NCBI GenBank assembly: GCA_024274705.1
Contig: JAJSAL010000044.1
Location: forward strand, 1 to 46,365
Origin: Spirochaetota bacterium
Lineage (GTDB): Bacteria > Spirochaetota > Spirochaetia > SPDA01 > JAJSAL01
Reading direction: 5' to 3'
Length of the DNA: 46,365 bases
Part shown: positions 29,975 through 34,821 of the stretch, piece after piece
Layout of the letters: each line of letters begins with the position of its first letter
Position numbering within the stretch: position 1 is the first letter of the stretch
Notes under the pieces: model-generated
Databases searched by the model: none
Told to the model about the DNA's origin: nothing
Seen by the model: the letters and a program-made list of their open reading frames with translations, nothing else
Program-made: the position numbers and the translations under genes

Positions 29975-30137
29975 TTCAGTCTTTCCAGTTGACCGTAATC
30001 TTTTCGTTCCCCAGTTTCTCTTTAATGATGTCCGCAAGGGACAAAAGTTCTTCTTTACAACAGTCTATCGTTTTTCCCTTGTTAAGCCTTACTTTAAGCT
30101 CATCCGCAAATTCAGAAAGAGTGATCTCTTTTTTCAT
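29975..30137 (-). CDS. Small hypothetical protein (53 aa): MKKEITLSEFADELKVRLNKGKTIDCCKEELLSLADIIKEKLGNEKITVNWKD.
   Basis: ATG at 30135-30137 preceded by a GGGGGGG Shine-Dalgarno-like run; stop at 29975-29977. It is below the ORF-track size cut-off. Confidence 0.35.
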
Positions 30138-30161
30138 GATTCCCCCCCATCAGGATACTAT

Positions 30162-30527
30162 TTAGATATAGTATAACAAGTTGTACGGTTTTAGATCAAG
30201 ATCTCTGTTGACGCTTCTCCATACCGGTAATGAGTCTCCCGATGACGTCCAGTTCCCACCGGAACAGTGAAGCCTGCCGGCGAAATCCAGCACCCGCTGC
30301 TGGAGGGCTGTGTACCCAGGCTCCCCTGTATGCAGCGAAGCCTGGAGATACGCGTAGGTCTCAAGCTTGCCGGCGAGTTCAGCACTACCGGGAACGCTGC
30401 CCCGGCGGGATTCCCTCTCCAGTTCAGCGATATCGTTTACCAGTTCAGGGTCATCTATCGAGTCATAGAGTTCGGAAAGATCCCACCTGGGGATCAGGGG
30501 AGCCCCCTCGAAATCGAAATAGCGGCA
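30162..30527 (-). pseudogene. Coding-like open frame of ~120 codons with no ATG/GTG/TTG start in its first ~80 codons. It may be a gene remnant or a non-canonically initiated gene.
   Basis: The translation ...LSELYDSIDDPELVNDIAELERESRRGSVPGSAELAGKLETYAYLQASLHTGEPGYTALQQRVLDFAGRLHCSGGNWTSSGDSLPVWRSVNRDLDLKPYNLLYYI has protein-like composition. The frame opens just after a TGA inside the 3' end of the TrxR gene. Confidence 0.25.
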
Positions 30528-31777
30528 ATGGTGCCGTCAGCTACCGCTGTAGTGATTTGCCGGTACGTCTTGGTCCTCACATCACCTGCTGCATACACCC
30601 CTTCGATATTTGTCTGCATTTCCCCGTCTGTTACCAGGTACCCCCACTGATCCTTCGACAGGCGGGGGTCAAAACCGCTTAAGTTTGGAATAAATCCGAC
30701 AAATACGAACACCCCGTTGGTACGGAGGCTCTTTCTCCCGCCGGTTTTAAGATCTTCCACCACCACTTCCATGTCCATGGTACCGTGTTTCCTGAATGCC
30801 CGGGGTTCGTGCTCGAACATGAAGGTGATCCTGTTATCGGCAAAGGCTTTTTCCTGGGCCTCCTTGTTTGCCTGCAGTTCAGCAAACTGGTGGACGATGG
30901 TGATGCTGCGTGCGAATTTCGCTATGAACAGCGCTTCCTCGATGGCGGAATTCCCACCTCCAATGACAATGACATCCTTTCCTTCGTAGTATTTAGCGTC
31001 ACAGGTTGCACAGTAGGAAATACCGTTTCCCGCAAACTCCTTCTCCCCTTCCAGTCCCAGCGGCCTGGGAGAGGAACCTGTCGCGATAATGATCTTCCGG
31101 GCCTTTATCGTTTCGAATCCGTCAATGAGAACTTCCTTTTTATCCAGGTCCACCGAGGTCACATCAACAGCGGCCCGGTATGCAACTCCCGCTGCTTTAG
31201 TCTGCTCGCTCATATAATGGGCTAGCATAACACCCTGCTGGGGCTCGATAAAACCGGGGTAGTTGGAGACCTGGTGAGTCCTGGAGACATAACCGCCGGG
31301 AAGGGCGGTATCCACCAGGATTGTATCGACCCGGGCCTGAGCCAGGTAGAGTCCCGCCGTAAGGCCCGCGGGTCCTCCGCCGAGGATGAGAGCCTGGCAC
31401 CCGGTTTTCACCGGTTGTATGCTCTCACGGATCTCTTTTGCCCTGGCTTCCGGAAGCAAGCAGTCCAGCCGGTCCGTAAGGTCCGAACGCCTGATGCCCC
31501 CTGAAAGGCGGGAACCTGTTTCTTTCCCGTTCTTATAGAATATCAGGGTCGGAGAAGCGGTAACACCTAAGGACTCGGCGAACTCCCGGTTTTCCTGGCG
31601 GAATATCTTGAAAAACGAAATATCGTCCCCGTAGAGCTCGCTCACCGGTTCGTATTTAGCAGCCAGGGCTTCACAGGGGGGGCATTCTGTCGAGTAAAAA
31701 TCGAGCACTGCCCGCTCTGCACCCAGTACGTGTTCTTCGTAATCCTTTGCTTCTATTTCCGTTATTTTTCCAGCCAT
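30494..31777 (-). CDS. Thioredoxin - thioredoxin reductase fusion protein (N-terminal Trx domain, C-terminal FAD/NADPH TrxR).
   Basis: Start at MAGKITE, with an AAGGAG Shine-Dalgarno 7 nt upstream. Trx active site STECPPCE. TrxR motifs GGGPAGLTAG (FAD), CATCD (redox disulfide) and GGGNSA (NADPH). Confidence 0.8.
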   Translation of the reverse strand: MAGKITEIEAKDYEEHVLGAERAVLDFYSTECPPCEALAAKYEPVSELYGDDISFFKIFRQENREFAESLGVTASPTLIFYKNGKETGSRLSGGIRRSDLTDRLDCLLPEARAKEIRESIQPVKTGCQALILGGGPAGLTAGLYLAQARVDTILVDTALPGGYVSRTHQVSNYPGFIEPQQGVMLAHYMSEQTKAAGVAYRAAVDVTSVDLDKKEVLIDGFETIKARKIIIATGSSPRPLGLEGEKEFAGNGISYCATCDAKYYEGKDVIVIGGGNSAIEEALFIAKFARSITIVHQFAELQANKEAQEKAFADNRITFMFEHEPRAFRKHGTMDMEVVVEDLKTGGRKSLRTNGVFVFVGFIPNLSGFDPRLSKDQWGYLVTDGEMQTNIEGVYAAGDVRTKTYRQITTAVADGTIAAISISRGLP

Positions 31778-31787
31778 GATCAACTCC

Positions 31788-33026
31788 TTATGAATAGAGG
31801 GGAATACCCATCTCCAGCAGTTCCCTGACAGGCCTGCAGTCAGGCGCACGAATCGTTCCTTCCCGGTTTTTCGAGACGGCTCCGCACCCCCCGCCGCAGG
31901 CGAGCTGGAGATTGCACGTCCTGCACCCCGGAATCGTTGTAACATCCCTCTCTTCCCACTCTTCGATAGCTTCCCTCTTTTTACTCACCTCCGGAAAGAA
32001 GGTCCCCAATGATTCCCCTTCTTTACCCACCGTGGCAGTACAGGAATAGATTCTGCCTGTGTAATCGAAGGCCCATTCCGTCTTGCACCCGGGGCAGGAA
32101 TCGAAGAGGGGTCCCGGGAGTTCCCCGTTTTCGAAGAGAAACCGGGAAACTGAAAAAGCGGGCCGGTGAAAATCGAGAACTTCCGGATGTTGTTTTATGA
32201 GTTCGTAGAGGTCCCGGTACATCTCCACCCTGTCGTAGAGAATCCCGCTGTTTTTCTGGCAGGTATGCAGTTCGTAGTTCCTCCCCAGCTGGGTTTTAAA
32301 GTTGGGATCCCGGGTCCATCCCCTTTCCTTCGCGAACAGCGCCATCCCGGGCAGATCAGCAAGATTCCCCCTGTCCAGGACGATCCGGAGATTGACCGGG
32401 TACCCTGCGCCAAGGGCTGCGTCGATTCCCCGGACCACCTTCCCAAAGGTGCTTCCTCCCCCTAAGAGGGGGCGCCGTTTGTCATGAACATCCCCGACAC
32501 CGTCCAGGGTCACCTGGATTTCCCTGATTTCGATATCCTTACATTCCGGCAGGTACTCCTCCAGGTGATACCCGTTTGTAACCACCGCGACCCCCAGATT
32601 CCTCCGTGCCGCCCCCTGTAATAACCGGCGGATACGGTCCTTCGCCGTATTGCCCGGCAGGAGGGGCTCTCCCCCGAACAGGGTAAGGTACTTTTTCCTT
32701 CCGGAGAATTCGCCGTCGATGTATGTATAAAACGCATCGATTACAGCAGGATCCAGGGAGAGCTCTTTTCCGCTGTATTCCTGCTGGTAACAGTAGGCAC
32801 ATCCGAAGTTGCACCCGTACCAGGGTACGAAAAATATCTGTATCTCCCCTTCATCCCGGGCATCCAGGAAATCGAGATACGCTTTTTTATACAGGCGGGA
32901 CTCTTCTCCTTCGTCGAGGACATACCCTTTTTCCCGGTAAGGTGCGGGATCGGGAACCCTGCCCTTCCGGACATCTTCCGCTTCCTGTTTCGACAGGATA
33001 TCCGCATTTGCGGTAAGGATATTCAT
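31788..33026 (-). CDS. Radical SAM enzyme with a C-terminal SPASM domain (anSME/peptide-maturase-like).
   Basis: CNFGCAYC (CxxxCxxC) radical SAM cluster motif. SPASM cysteines CPGCKTEW...YSC and CRTCNLQLACGGGCGA. The start is set at Met66 (33024-33026), because the upstream part of the track ORF runs through an intrinsic terminator and is Cys/Arg/Trp-rich nonsense. Confidence 0.75.
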   Translation of the reverse strand: MNILTANADILSKQEAEDVRKGRVPDPAPYREKGYVLDEGEESRLYKKAYLDFLDARDEGEIQIFFVPWYGCNFGCAYCYQQEYSGKELSLDPAVIDAFYTYIDGEFSGRKKYLTLFGGEPLLPGNTAKDRIRRLLQGAARRNLGVAVVTNGYHLEEYLPECKDIEIREIQVTLDGVGDVHDKRRPLLGGGSTFGKVVRGIDAALGAGYPVNLRIVLDRGNLADLPGMALFAKERGWTRDPNFKTQLGRNYELHTCQKNSGILYDRVEMYRDLYELIKQHPEVLDFHRPAFSVSRFLFENGELPGPLFDSCPGCKTEWAFDYTGRIYSCTATVGKEGESLGTFFPEVSKKREAIEEWEERDVTTIPGCRTCNLQLACGGGCGAVSKNREGTIRAPDCRPVRELLEMGIPLYS

Positions 33027-33101
33027 GAGAAGGTACTCATCGGAATCCGCTAAGGGGGTCAATATATTATACGCCGAAAAACGCACACCATCCTCCAGGA
33101 T

Positions 33102-33147
33102 AAAAAAAGCGTGCCGCTTGATCGTCGATTGACCATGCAAGCGGCAC
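33102..33147 (-). terminator. Rho-independent terminator (minus strand) ending the MarR-methyltransferase operon.
   Basis: Perfect 10-bp stem GTGCCGCTTG/CAAGCGGCAC with a 17-nt loop, followed on the minus strand by TTTTTTT (AAAAAAA at 33102-33108 on plus). Confidence 0.65.
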
Positions 33148-33294
33148 AACAGGAACCAGTTGGCTTCACACCATCCTAGTCGTGGCAGCCTGCGACAACA
33201 GAAGAAATTTTTGCACAGCATTGGGCTGTTTTCTTCTTATCAGCTGCTTTTTTGCGAATGAGTGTCTTCATTAGAAGCTCCTTTCTCACCGGTT

Positions 33295-33954
33295 TTACTT
33301 AGCTTTACAGCACCCCGCCGGTTTTGTTCCCGCCAGGGTGATGCTGGCAACAACAATATTACCCTTGTCGTAGGGTTTACTTTCTTCGATTACAGTGAGT
33401 TCTTTGAATCCCGTATTCTTAAGGGTTTCCATGTACACTTCCCGGGTTACGGCACCGGCCCAGCATTCTGCGATTGCTTCCGCGTCGGAAGCGTATTCTT
33501 CCGGTACAGTCTCAAGGGAATAGATGTCACTGACAACAAACCTGCCCCCTTTTTTCAAAACACGGTAAATCTCGTCCCACACTTTCTGTTTTTCCCCGGC
33601 GTGGTTTATGGTGCAGTTGGAAATAACCAGGTCAACCGTACTATCTTCAAGGGGTATATTCTCCAGTTCGGTGTGAAAGAACTTCACATTTTTTACCCCC
33701 AGCCGGGCGGCGGTTTTTTCAGCTTTTTCCACCATTCCGTCGGCAATGTCCACACCGTAGACAAATCCCTCACTGCCTACTTTTTCCGCCATGCGGATCA
33801 CATCCGTTCCCCGGCCGCTTCCCAGGTCCAGGCACACCTCTCCTTGAGCGGGCTCTCCCTGATCCAGGGCCCCTCCGCAGGAAAGACAGCAGGTGCTTTC
33901 CGCCAGGTGAGTATAACGCTCACTTATCGCTTCAATGTTGTTTCGTTCCGCCAC
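33295..33954 (-). CDS. Class I SAM-dependent methyltransferase with ArsM-like conserved cysteines.
   Basis: SAM-binding LDLGSGRGTDV. VISNCTINH resembles the ArsM VVSNCVLNL motif. Cys pairs at the N-terminus (STCCLSCGG) and C-terminus (GCCKAK). Confidence 0.65.
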   Translation of the reverse strand: MAERNNIEAISERYTHLAESTCCLSCGGALDQGEPAQGEVCLDLGSGRGTDVIRMAEKVGSEGFVYGVDIADGMVEKAEKTAARLGVKNVKFFHTELENIPLEDSTVDLVISNCTINHAGEKQKVWDEIYRVLKKGGRFVVSDIYSLETVPEEYASDAEAIAECWAGAVTREVYMETLKNTGFKELTVIEESKPYDKGNIVVASITLAGTKPAGCCKAK

Positions 33955-33962
33955 AATTCCTC

Positions 33963-34370
33963 CTACAATACCGAAACCAGGGTCATAATATGCCGGGATA
34001 TCTCTTCCGCCTGATCAGCGTCCAACCGCTCCAGCAGCCGGGCCTCACACAGGGACTTCTGCCGTTCTATCCCTTTCAGGCACTCGGTTCCTTCTCCGCT
34101 CAAGGAGATCATCACGTACCGTTTGTCATCCTTATGATGGGCCAGGTCGAGATACCCCTTTTCATGAAGCCCGCCGATCACCCGGCTCCCCCTGGAAGGC
34201 GAGAGACCAAGACACAGGGAAAGCTCCGATGCAGACAGGGTTTCACCATCCCTTAAAGCGAAGATGCACGAAATCTGCCTGGGGGTAAGATCATGGGCAC
34301 TCCCGATCTCTTCCTCTATGCGGCACTTCTGTTTCAGCTTCAGTATTGCATCAATAATAGATTCAGACAT
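33963..34370 (-). CDS. MarR-family transcriptional regulator.
   Basis: wHTH region LTPRQISCIFALRDGETLSASELSLCLGLSPSRGSRVIGGLHEKGYL, ~135 aa. Confidence 0.8.
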   Translation of the reverse strand: MSESIIDAILKLKQKCRIEEEIGSAHDLTPRQISCIFALRDGETLSASELSLCLGLSPSRGSRVIGGLHEKGYLDLAHHKDDKRYVMISLSGEGTECLKGIERQKSLCEARLLERLDADQAEEISRHIMTLVSVL

Positions 34371-34386
34371 AATAACTCATAAATAG

Positions 34387-34399
34387 TTGCTATTAGCAA
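34387..34399. promoter_or_regulatory. Perfect palindrome TTGCTA-T-TAGCAA 17 nt upstream of the marR-like gene start, a candidate autoregulatory operator.
   Basis: Read directly from the sequence. Confidence 0.35.
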
Positions 34400-34542
34400 T
34401 CATCTCCCATAATATCGTGTTTTTTGAATATATTGTCAAGCGTTTGTTGGATTTTTAGGACCGAACCGGTGTCCTTTCCACTATGCGGTTAAGGTGCTGA
34501 ATTTCCGGGTTCCGGGCCACTGCTGTTCTTCAGCTCGACCAG

Positions 34543-34821
34543 GTGATCCAGCAGAACGCTTCGGCTTCGGAGGAATTGGCATCCACATCGGAAGAGCTCT
34601 CATCCCAGGCGGAACAGCTCCAGTCGGCTATCTCCTATTTTCGCGTGGATACCAACGGTAGCAGAAAAAAACGGAAGCAGCTCGTAACCGCCGGCGCCGG
34701 AGAAAAGACAGGTATCACTCTGCACCCGGAACCGACCCCCGGTAAAAAAGCAGAAAAACCTGAATTGCAGGAACCTGAACTGAAAATGGATGTGAATGAT
34801 TCCGATTTCGAGGAATTTTAA
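34543..34821 (+). pseudogene. 3' remnant of a methyl-accepting chemotaxis protein gene (C-terminal ~90 codons only).
   Basis: QNASASEELASTSEELSSQAEQLQSAISYFRVD is the conserved extreme C-terminus of MCP signalling domains. The frame begins at a GTG, with no upstream MCP body (the marR promoter region lies there). Confidence 0.6.

Follow-up and report, generated by a model that had tools for sequence, protein, structure and literature searches.

The stretch of DNA analysed here (the window) comprises 46,365 nucleotides (nt) of contig JAJSAL010000044.1, from the assembly GCA_024274705.1 of a Spirochaetota bacterium. On its minus strand it carries a cassette of five genes whose products are, in order: (i) a MarR-family regulator; (ii) a methyltransferase resembling the arsenite methyltransferase ArsM; (iii) a 31-residue peptide; (iv) a radical S-adenosylmethionine (SAM) enzyme with a SPASM domain; and (v) a fusion of thioredoxin (Trx) with a thioredoxin reductase (TrxR)-like flavoprotein. 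A hairpin lies between the peptide gene and the radical SAM (rSAM) gene. In the direction of transcription, the features of the cassette are the following:

34411..34439 (minus): sigma-70-like promoter, TTGACA, 17 nt, GATATT (consensus match only, 10/12); probable start of the cassette transcript
34387..34399 (no strand assigned): candidate operator for MarR, a palindrome (TTGCTA-A-TAGCAA) that lies between the MarR start and the -10 element
33963..34370 (minus): MarR-family regulator, 135 residues (Pfam MarR_2, E 2e-11)
33295..33954 (minus): short ArsM-like SAM methyltransferase, 219 residues, with a Cys-rich C-terminal tail (…GCCKAK); assigned with NF008823 and solved ArsM structures
33176..33271 (minus): 31-residue peptide MKTLIRKKAADKKKTAQCCAKISSVVAGCHD, start codon ATG 33271, ribosome-binding site AAAGGAG; candidate precursor and substrate of the rSAM enzyme
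33102..33148 (minus): intrinsic-terminator-like hairpin with a U7 tract, directly 3' of the peptide gene (dG -25.1 kcal/mol, z -5.8)
31788..33086 (minus): rSAM/SPASM enzyme, 432 residues, GTG start, N-terminal domain possibly of the leader-binding type (Pfam Radical_SAM, TIGR04085)
30494..31777 (minus): fusion of Trx (CPPC, residues 6-104) and a low-Mr TrxR-like flavoprotein (CATC, residues 129-427), 427 residues (Pfam Thioredoxin; Pyr_redox_2, 129-415)

A preliminary description of this locus dealt with the last two genes, and the interval it reported is indeed occupied by two long minus-strand open reading frames (ORFs). Its observation was largely right and is partly confirmed here, and its interpretation is partly supported. 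The pair was then taken for a two-gene operon; the unit actually consists of the genes for MarR, the ArsM-like methyltransferase, the peptide, the rSAM enzyme and the Trx-TrxR fusion, and the pair makes up the downstream half of a cassette that is self-contained and widely transferred and so far has no name. A literature search for this cassette found nothing, and no curated family corresponds to it either. A profile of the rSAM family, run against a collection with one genome per species, yielded at least 581 loci, of which the best 80 were inspected; the counts given below for the cassette refer to these.

The genes are tightly packed. Spacers of 8-23 nt separate the MarR, methyltransferase and peptide genes, each of which has its own ribosome-binding site: the MarR stop codon is followed by a GAGG site and the methyltransferase GTG, and the peptide gene begins 23 nt past the methyltransferase stop. 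Between the methyltransferase gene and the rSAM start there are 208 nt on the minus strand, which hold the peptide gene and the hairpin. Finally, the rSAM stop codon (TAA, 31788) overlaps the GGAG ribosome-binding site of the fusion, whose ATG (31777) follows ten nt on; the 10-nt gap between the rSAM stop and a Trx(CPPC)-TrxR(CATC) fusion, as first described, thus agrees in both coordinates and domains.

According to the preliminary description, no precursor peptide was visible in the operon and the rSAM substrate could not be named; a conserved gene of 31 codons with an AAAGGAG ribosome-binding site is, however, present at 33176..33271 on the minus strand, and its stop codon lies 90 nt ahead of the rSAM start, which provides a dedicated candidate substrate. 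In the set of 81 peptides formed by the 80 related loci and the window, the motif CCAK.[ST]....GCH[DN] followed by a stop codon occurs exactly once in each of the 81 sequences. The peptides, of which 77 are distinct and whose modal length is 31 residues, open with a conserved M-K-S-L-I-[KR]-K-K, continue with a basic linker that varies and end in a core (A-Q-C-C-A-K-x-S-x-x-x-x-G-C-H-D) of which eight positions, including three invariant cysteines, are identical in 81/81. Summed over the 16 core codons of the 81 sequences, variability at codon positions 1, 2 and 3 amounts to 1.43, 1.64 and 7.70, respectively. Since variation is concentrated at third codon positions, the peptide gene can be taken, on this codon pattern, to be a real gene under purifying selection. 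The three Cys codons are written as both TGC and TGT, and selenocysteine variants, which were sought in the 81 peptides, do not occur, all codons being TGC or TGT.

An exhaustive phmmer search of 1.84 billion representatives with the peptide returned just 19 clusters of 30-59 residues, with the motif always C-terminal and never fused to a domain, and three versions of the peptide matched no family in NCBIfam and Pfam. The lone Pfam match, to BTK-motif, is sub-threshold (E 0.039) and is taken as a structural analogy in the CC-x9-C spacing, which is that of the single-metal Btk motif site, and not as homology. The As(III) site of ArsD is, in turn, CC-x4-C. By analogy with such sites, a metal(loid)-binding role of the peptide core is credible. 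In public records the gene is omitted in Marispirochaeta aestuarii and annotated as 'hypothetical protein' in Spirochaeta isovalerica (UniProt A0A841R184). In some peptides the linker contains an additional QCCA or CC, e.g., MKTLIKKKSAEQCCATAQCCAKISSIVAGCHD (L023 5818-5916, L026 5817-5915, L042 1226-1321; loci are designated by L numbers), which looks like a partial duplication of the first motif of the core.

Directly downstream of the peptide gene, the hairpin starts 28 nt after the stop codon, and from the end of its U-tract to the rSAM GTG there are about 15 nt; none of 200 shuffled sequences folds as well. Similar structures follow the peptide stop in most loci; the 90 nt examined have a median dG of -24 kcal/mol, z is below -2 in 57 of the 81 sequences and a U-run is often present. 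A terminator had formerly been placed at the upstream boundary of the operon: a strong hairpin with a U7 tract does exist, but it sits inside the conserved cassette and is no operon boundary. Because about 15 nt are too few for a promoter, expression of the rSAM and trx-trxR genes has to rely on transcripts that cross the hairpin, and as no promoter fits before the rSAM GTG, the hairpin is internal to the unit. It is hence read as an attenuator or stabiliser rather than as the operon end. By analogy, the succession of precursor, leaky terminator and maturase would be a familiar arrangement. A scan of the whole window with Rfam gave no RNA family at gathering score.

By its family affinities, the rSAM enzyme belongs among the proteins that modify peptides. 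Its start is placed at GTG 33086, behind a GGAGG ribosome-binding site, because the alignment of curated profiles and the lengths and N-termini of homologues agree on it: in the maximal ORF (31788..33221), alignments to curated maturase profiles begin with profile position 2 at residue 47, and the closest 120 homologues have 415-493 residues and begin M-x-x-S-x-[YH]-N-I. The N-terminal extension of ~60 residues noticed previously is not an artefact of a mis-called start, a possibility that was considered and rejected: the maximal ORF (33221) is too long, yet a domain of about 85 residues remains ahead of the core from the true GTG, aligning from profile position 2 of several models of enzymes that mature ribosomally synthesised peptides that are modified post-translationally (RiPPs). 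The cysteines first reported, i.e., CxxxCxxC and those of the auxiliary clusters, are likewise all there. The cluster motif reads CNFGCAYC, with its three cysteines invariant in 22 homologues, in which the SPASM cysteines (C331, C349, C388, C391, C397, C401 and C417) are equally invariant. Both domains score above their cut-offs (Pfam PF04055 Radical_SAM, 73.2 bits vs. 29.5; SPASM TIGR04085, 40.4 bits vs. 27).

The top NCBIfam matches of the enzyme are all maturases of Cys-rich peptides (CefB, TIGR04463, geopeptide, PapB, Clo7bot and SCIFF). None of the named maturase families (CefB, TIGR04463, PapB, ScfB, MftC, QhpD, HxsB) is reached at its curated NCBIfam cut-off, as illustrated by CefB (120.8 of 600 bits), PapB (83 of 340), ScfB (70 of 425) and MftC (55.6 of 265). 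The thioether synthase CteB is the best solved match both by sequence (5wgg, E 1.8e-9) and by fold over the full length (E 2.4e-14, with a predicted model whose mean predicted local distance difference test score, pLDDT, is 70.5), followed by the anaerobic sulfatase-maturating enzyme (anSME), SuiB, ChlB and SkfB. The first 85 residues or so align to the N-termini of RiPP-maturase models, and the fold match to CteB covers the full length; a domain of the RiPP recognition element (RRE) type may be present in this part, where the pLDDT is only 50-73. As all maturase scores lie several-fold below their cut-offs, the enzyme is a member of the peptide-modifying SPASM group that stands outside every named family; the subfamily assignment for which a profile check had been suggested was not obtained, and the enzyme is not an anSME. 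The nearest relatives of both the rSAM enzyme and the fusion, at 93-94% identity, come from metagenome contigs.

The methyltransferase shows a close affinity to ArsM together with clear departures from it. Against NF008823 (arsenite methyltransferase) it scores 194.8 bits, below the cut-off of 263, over profile positions 57-233 of 272; its five best solved matches are all ArsM (E ~1e-21), the next fold family following at 1e-13. With 219 residues vs. 321-387 for solved ArsM chains, it lacks the ArsM C-terminal domain. Its residues C26, C114 and C164 align residue-for-residue to Cys72, Cys174 and Cys224 of CmArsM (4fr0) and are conserved in 92-93% of 76 cassette methyltransferases. Where the equivalent of Cys44, a fourth conserved ArsM cysteine required to methylate As(III) for the first time, would be sought, the N-terminal region is shorter and unaligned to the structures; a conserved CC pair at positions 22-23 (>90%) might take its place. 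The tails are variable yet Cys-rich (CCKAK, CCCC, CNCGS). Taken from the sequence, the Cys triad argues for a thiol-ligated soft metalloid as target of the methyltransferase. In ArsM itself, the cysteines bind As(III) and form catalytic disulfides, for which reduction by Trx has been proposed, and As(III) enters by thiol transfer from a tri-thiol conjugate (PMC6138428). Homologues of the methyltransferase are named by NCBI as 'methyltransferase domain-containing protein' only. Calls of 'arsenite methyltransferase' on such proteins in metagenomes may inflate the estimates of arsenic methylation which are based on arsM.

Regarding the fusion, CPPC and CATC are invariant in the cassette copies, and since both dithiols are kept, the protein can be classed by its motifs as a disulfide reductase. 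Its TrxR part matches solved TrxRs with E 2e-68 and shares about 45% identity with ordinary TrxRs (estimated by eye); TIGR01292 gives 293 bits, under the cut-off of 343. Conserved in 73 cassette copies are DFYSTECPPCEALA, SYCATCDAKYY, GGGNSA and VHQF..LQANK. The arginines of the HRRxxxR motif hold the 2'-phosphate of NADPH, and in the alignment to solved TrxRs the corresponding position of the window fusion reads HQFAELQ. The protein had been called a complete NADPH thioredoxin reductase: the CATC/GGGNSA module is there, but HRRxxxR is replaced by a conserved VHQFxxLQANK and the motifs do not back an 'NADPH-driven' enzyme. NADPH specificity thus appears doubtful, HRRxxxR being absent with HQFxxLQ in its place; as for the electron donor, NADH would be a guess. 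HRRxxxR has been used as a criterion for NAD(P)H-dependent thioredoxin reductases (NTRs) (PMC10880999). The family members listed have 426-437 residues (mostly 427), are 66-93% identical and bear generic names only.

In the regulatory part of the cassette, palindromes identical or nearly identical to that of the window (TTGCTA-N-TAGCAA, AGTTGCTAATAGCAACT, ATTGCTAATAGCAAT) recur upstream of the cassette marR, e.g., in L006, L013, L020, L024, L032, L056 and L070, and TTGC(N3-9)GCAA is found in 26 of the 36 marR-containing loci. The recurrent palindrome is, going by its sequence and position, likely to be the operator of the cassette MarR. Two cysteines of the regulator are conserved in 31 aligned sequences (C16, 100%; C108, 97%).

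Among the 80 loci, methyltransferase and peptide are present in all, and the Trx-TrxR fusion in 78 of the 79 that are informative, one further contig being truncated; only L073 is without a fusion within 6 kb. Of these 78 loci, 73 have the fusion downstream of the rSAM gene and the other 5 have it ahead of the methyltransferase gene. The MarR gene stands beside the methyltransferase gene in 38/80. An apparent absence of the peptide in eight loci, and of Trx-TrxR in L005, turned out to be due to tblastn thresholds or frameshifts. In L005 (7312-7639), tblastn finds the Trx domain of the fusion in two pieces that overlap and differ in frame, which probably reflects a frameshift or an error of sequencing in this metagenome-assembled genome. 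The gap between the rSAM and trx-trxR genes is below 150 nt in 60 loci and often 0-10 nt.

The hosts (among them Spirochaetota, Leptospirales, Brevinematales, Bacteroidales, Ignavibacteriota, Melioribacter, Latescibacterota, Syntrophomonadaceae/Bacillota and Myxococcota) represent at least six phyla of anaerobes, namely Spirochaetota, Bacteroidota, Ignavibacteriota, Latescibacterota, Bacillota and Myxococcota. Cultured hosts are M. aestuarii, S. isovalerica and Salinispira pacifica; in the first two the cassette lies in unrelated neighbourhoods, and as flanking genes differ between isolates, it can be regarded as self-contained and transferable. Conservation in relatives was the check proposed for the pairing of rSAM and Trx-TrxR, and retention of the fusion in nearly all informative loci, across these phyla and with unrelated flanks, indicates a conserved functional linkage and not a chance adjacency.

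As to the surroundings of the cassette, the 6 kb to each side of it in the 80 loci contain no recurrent protease, ABC exporter, immunity gene or sulfatase, and none of Acr3, ArsC, ArsA/D and ArsR is recurrent near the cassette in them. Extra thioredoxins are found near it in 8 loci. A Cys-rich DUF1847 protein (N-terminal CxxCxxxxC…C), which is not encoded in the window, accompanies the cassette in 20/80 loci (L081 8616-9161; L008 7308-7877; L030 2185-2772; L053 7301-7894; L059 7355-7963; and 15 further loci) and in some Bacteroidales is located between the rSAM and trx-trxR genes; DUF1847 has no NCBIfam model, and a full-text literature search gave no paper naming it. In six Bacteroidota loci, mostly Bacteroidales (L053 9263-9667, L054 8645-9052, L058, L060, L065 and L071), a DUF302 protein adjoins the cassette. 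In the window, a further small gene lies downstream of the fusion:

29976..30137 (minus): 53-residue protein (MKKEITLSEFADELK…T[VI]DCCKEEL…V.WKD) with an invariant DCC; own promoter-like site at 30199..30170

Homologues of this protein, which has no family match, are encoded within 6 kb in 12/80 loci at 51-85% identity and in variable position and orientation (L014 8712-8870, L070 8647-8802, L055 8642-8800 and 9 further loci); the records checked are mostly from Spirochaetota, with one from Myxococcota. It may be an accessory Cys-Cys protein of the cassette, its membership being uncertain. The 356 nt between it and trx-trxR (30138..30493, minus) contain no convincing gene. An ORF fragment (…RWDLSELYDSIDDPELVNDIAELERE…) that reads across the 3' end of trx-trxR has no family or BLAST match; a remnant of an oligoendopeptidase N-terminus, suspected by eye in the 350-nt stretch downstream of trx-trxR, was discarded after NCBIfam and BLAST against the locus proteins gave nothing. 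A 92-residue ORF divergent from marR (34543..34821, plus) looks like a gene fragment; its match to methyl-accepting chemotaxis proteins is confined to their signalling end at the extreme C-terminus (profile positions ~480-530). A defence system was considered with PADLOC and rejected, the matches being a generic likeness of the rSAM core to pVip and of the methyltransferase fold to mad2.

The reading that accounts best for these observations, to which we assign a probability of roughly 55%, is that the cassette is an uncharacterised peptide-maturation system with the peptide as the likely substrate of the rSAM enzyme. What has been observed is which genes occur together, how conserved they are, that the peptide gene is real and which families the proteins resemble; from this we infer the following chemical steps. 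The cassette would be transcribed from the promoter and operator ahead of marR, and the hairpin would let only part of the transcripts pass, so that more peptide than enzyme is produced. The N-terminal domain of the rSAM enzyme would hold the N-terminus of the peptide (MKSLI+KK), and radical hydrogen abstraction would then lead to a cross-link in AQCCAKxSxxxxGCHD which, by analogy with the nearest relatives of the enzyme, may be a Cys-derived thioether. The methyltransferase would act on the same peptide or on a soft metalloid bound by the peptide thiols. In the fusion, electrons from a donor that is probably not NADPH-specific would flow from FAD to CATC and on to CPPC, keeping the peptide cysteines and/or the catalytic disulfides of the methyltransferase reduced and not serving the rSAM cluster. 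The product is probably intracellular, because no protease, exporter or immunity gene recurs, and the leading guess for its use inside the cell is thiol- or metal(loid)-handling. With no export or processing genes and with a near-invariant core, the cassette resembles, by analogy, cofactor-type systems (pyrroloquinoline quinone, PQQ; mycofactocin; SCIFF) more closely than bacteriocins.

Several points weigh against a peptide-maturation system as just outlined, or against parts of it: (i) the thioether is deduced from distant relatives only, with 18% identity to CteB and NCBIfam scores far under cut-off; (ii) all three cysteines as thioethers would leave the methyltransferase and Trx-TrxR no peptide thiols; (iii) the conserved N-terminal 'leader' of the peptide is short, about 8 residues; (iv) the N-terminal domain of the rSAM model has a pLDDT of just 50-73; (v) the retained ArsM Cys triad points to a metalloid, and not to the peptide, as substrate of the methyltransferase; and (vi) the 80 loci inspected are those most similar to the query, from at least 581. 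The metalloid link itself has to be set against the lack of recurrent arsenic genes, which leaves the methyltransferase as its sole foundation; in fact, the missing ars context and a regulator of the MarR and not of the ArsR type argue against a classical arsenic function.

Among the rival explanations, the cassette could produce a secreted antimicrobial RiPP of the ranthipeptide or sactipeptide type, tailored by the methyltransferase, with the fusion keeping the precursor cysteines reduced before cross-linking. The order of precursor, terminator and maturase is the classic RiPP layout, the nearest families of the rSAM enzyme mature Cys-rich RiPPs and CteB is its best structural match. A leader protease and an exporter are usual, though not indispensable, for secreted RiPPs; a protease, an ABC exporter and an immunity gene do not recur within 6 kb in the 80 loci. 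A near-invariant core is typical of cofactor precursors such as PqqA and MftA, and bacteriocins diversify fast; the 16-residue core of the cassette peptide is nearly invariant across phyla, with 8 positions identical in 81/81. Besides, a methyltransferase that merely tailors a peptide would not need metalloid-ligand cysteines. On balance, an antimicrobial is unlikely.

The cassette could also be a metalloid module, in which a true short ArsM is recycled by the fusion and the peptide remains unmodified, either as a carrier of the As(III) type like ArsD or as a substitute for As(GS)3 in glutathione-free anaerobes, and the rSAM enzyme acts on the peptide-bound metalloid, e.g., by making a C-As bond as ArsL and ArsS do. 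The conserved ArsM Cys triad, the Cys-rich methyltransferase tails, the Cys-rich DUF1847 partner in 20 loci, the Btk-like CC-x9-C spacing of the peptide (a weak Pfam match, E 0.039) and the CC-x4-C site of ArsD would all fit. So would the properties of ArsM, which takes As(III) from a tri-thiol conjugate and for which re-reduction by Trx is proposed (PMC6138428), and there are two precedents of an rSAM enzyme that makes organoarsenicals together with ArsM (arsQML, PMC8552651; bioRxiv 10.1101/2024.02.01.577332). Nonetheless, the rSAM enzyme is built like a peptide maturase (N-terminal domain plus SPASM) and is unrelated to ArsL/ArsS, TIGR04167 not being among its listed matches (best 25 of 62); the methyltransferase stays under the ArsM cut-off (195 vs. 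263 bits) and is without the ArsM C-terminal domain; and, as said, no ars transporter or reductase recurs and the regulator is of the MarR type. Such a module therefore has a rather small chance of being the right description.

A more speculative proposal, which we consider quite improbable, would place the metalloid on the ribosomal peptide. As(III), Sb, Se or Te would be bound by the Cys-Cys…Cys(His) core, and a carbon radical generated on the peptide by the SPASM enzyme would capture it, unless the enzyme fixed the site in another way; methylation of the metalloid would fall to the ArsM-type enzyme and recycling of the disulfides to the fusion. If true, no peptide-templated organo-metalloid pathway would have been known before, and rSAM and ArsM would have a third partnership, unrelated to the other two.

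In the preliminary description, the fusion was seen as a private NADPH-driven source of reductant, which as an electron source for the [4Fe-4S] cluster of the rSAM enzyme is very unlikely. The closeness of the two genes in 60 loci, the downstream position of the fusion in 73/78 and the fact that TrxR-fold flavoproteins can serve as ferredoxin/flavodoxin reductases (3lzw and 6gas are among the matches) would speak for it. Yet thioredoxin carries out two-electron dithiol/disulfide chemistry, and rSAM clusters are normally reduced by the low-potential, one-electron donors flavodoxin or ferredoxin, so a role as reductant for SAM cleavage is improbable, a dithiol being a poor donor to a low-potential cluster. 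The invariant CPPC and CATC differ from FNR-type enzymes, which have no CxxC; HRRxxxR is missing; in 5 loci the fusion stands at the front of the operon, beside the methyltransferase gene; and a Trx client with precedent, an ArsM-type enzyme, is encoded in the same cassette. What stands of the proposed redox role is disulfide handling for the substrate, plausible with a peptide that has three invariant cysteines: it is more likely that the fusion reduces disulfides of the peptide and/or the methyltransferase than that it drives SAM cleavage.

That the small ORF is only a regulatory leader peptide, sensing cysteine and acting by transcription attenuation through the hairpin, is highly improbable: it is short, has Cys codons, ends 28 nt from a strong terminator and lies directly upstream of the enzyme genes, but leader peptides keep regulatory codons only, and here the residues A, Q, A, K, S, G, H and D vary across phyla as little as the cysteines do, synonymous change being free; no alternative antiterminator structure was seen, though no search aimed at one was made, and the N-terminal domain of the rSAM enzyme, which resembles that of peptide maturases, is at odds with it too. 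An anSME with its sulfatase encoded elsewhere is effectively refuted, for despite the common SPASM architecture and the second-best fold match (4k37, E 4.6e-13), TIGR03942 gives 43 bits vs. a cut-off of 349.45, the alignments to anSME begin at query residue 90 and leave the extra N-terminal domain uncovered, no sulfatase recurs, and the dedicated peptide, present in 80/80 loci, has no (C/S)xPxR.

The peptide-maturation reading matters because rSAM/SPASM enzymes acting on small peptides are a main source both of novel enzyme chemistry and of cofactors derived from peptides, and this cassette is found in at least several hundred species-level genomes of anaerobes. Possible prospects are (i) a new peptide modification; (ii) a new molecule with which anaerobes that lack glutathione handle thiols or metal(loid)s inside the cell; and (iii) a new route of metalloid methylation in anoxic sediments. 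An ArsM-type methyltransferase and a dedicated Trx-TrxR fusion are partners not known so far from systems of an rSAM/SPASM enzyme and a peptide.

Compared with known systems, the cassette is closest to the maturases CteB/SCIFF and PapB (ranthipeptide type), with which it shares an N-terminal domain, possibly of the peptide-binding type, an rSAM core, a SPASM domain with two auxiliary clusters and a short Cys-rich peptide encoded immediately upstream; like SCIFF, it is widely conserved without a dedicated protease or exporter. It differs in the low identity to CteB (~18%), in the scores against the SCIFF, PapB and CefB models (70-121 bits vs. cut-offs of 340-600) and in the peptide, which has neither the six-Cys-in-45 pattern nor the CxxxD motif. 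To our knowledge, neither an ArsM-like methyltransferase nor a Trx-TrxR fusion accompanies any member of the CteB/SCIFF/PapB type. The systems of PQQ (PqqA/PqqE) and mycofactocin (MftA/MftC) have in common with it a precursor that is very short and ends in an invariant motif, an rSAM/SPASM enzyme, use inside the cell (probable for the cassette product) and a compact cassette of patchy occurrence across phyla, and mycofactocin clusters also carry a methyltransferase; the cassette peptide, however, lacks the Glu/Tyr or Val-Tyr motif, there is no peptidase or separate RRE protein and the partner enzymes are others.

With respect to ArsM and its recycling by Trx/TrxR, the cassette methyltransferase keeps the equivalents of Cys72, Cys174 and Cys224, a nearby CC pair and a Cys-rich tail, but its Trx system is fused and dedicated, the peptide and the rSAM enzyme are obligatory partners and the ars operon context is missing. 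ArsL-ArsM (arsinothricin) and ArsS-ArsM (arsenosugars) likewise pair an rSAM enzyme genetically with a member of the ArsM family (PMC8552651; bioRxiv 10.1101/2024.02.01.577332), but ArsL and ArsS use free arsenicals as substrates, have no SPASM domain, peptide-binding domain or peptide partner and show no sequence relationship among the matches listed.

Lastly, the Trx-TrxR order of the fusion, originally presented as a reversal of a known one, does differ from that of the NTRC and M. leprae TrxR-Trx proteins, in which TrxR is N-terminal and Trx C-terminal, but an N-terminal Trx fold joined to a TrxR-like module, each with a CxxC, is already known from AhpF. TIGR03140 positions 159-507 align to fusion residues 63-421, with a score of 201.7 vs. 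the cut-off of 502.9 bits; AhpF has two Trx folds vs. one in the fusion, and no AhpC peroxiredoxin is recurrent beside the latter. From the low-Mr TrxRs, the fusion is set apart by the absence of HRRxxxR, while GxGxxA is present.

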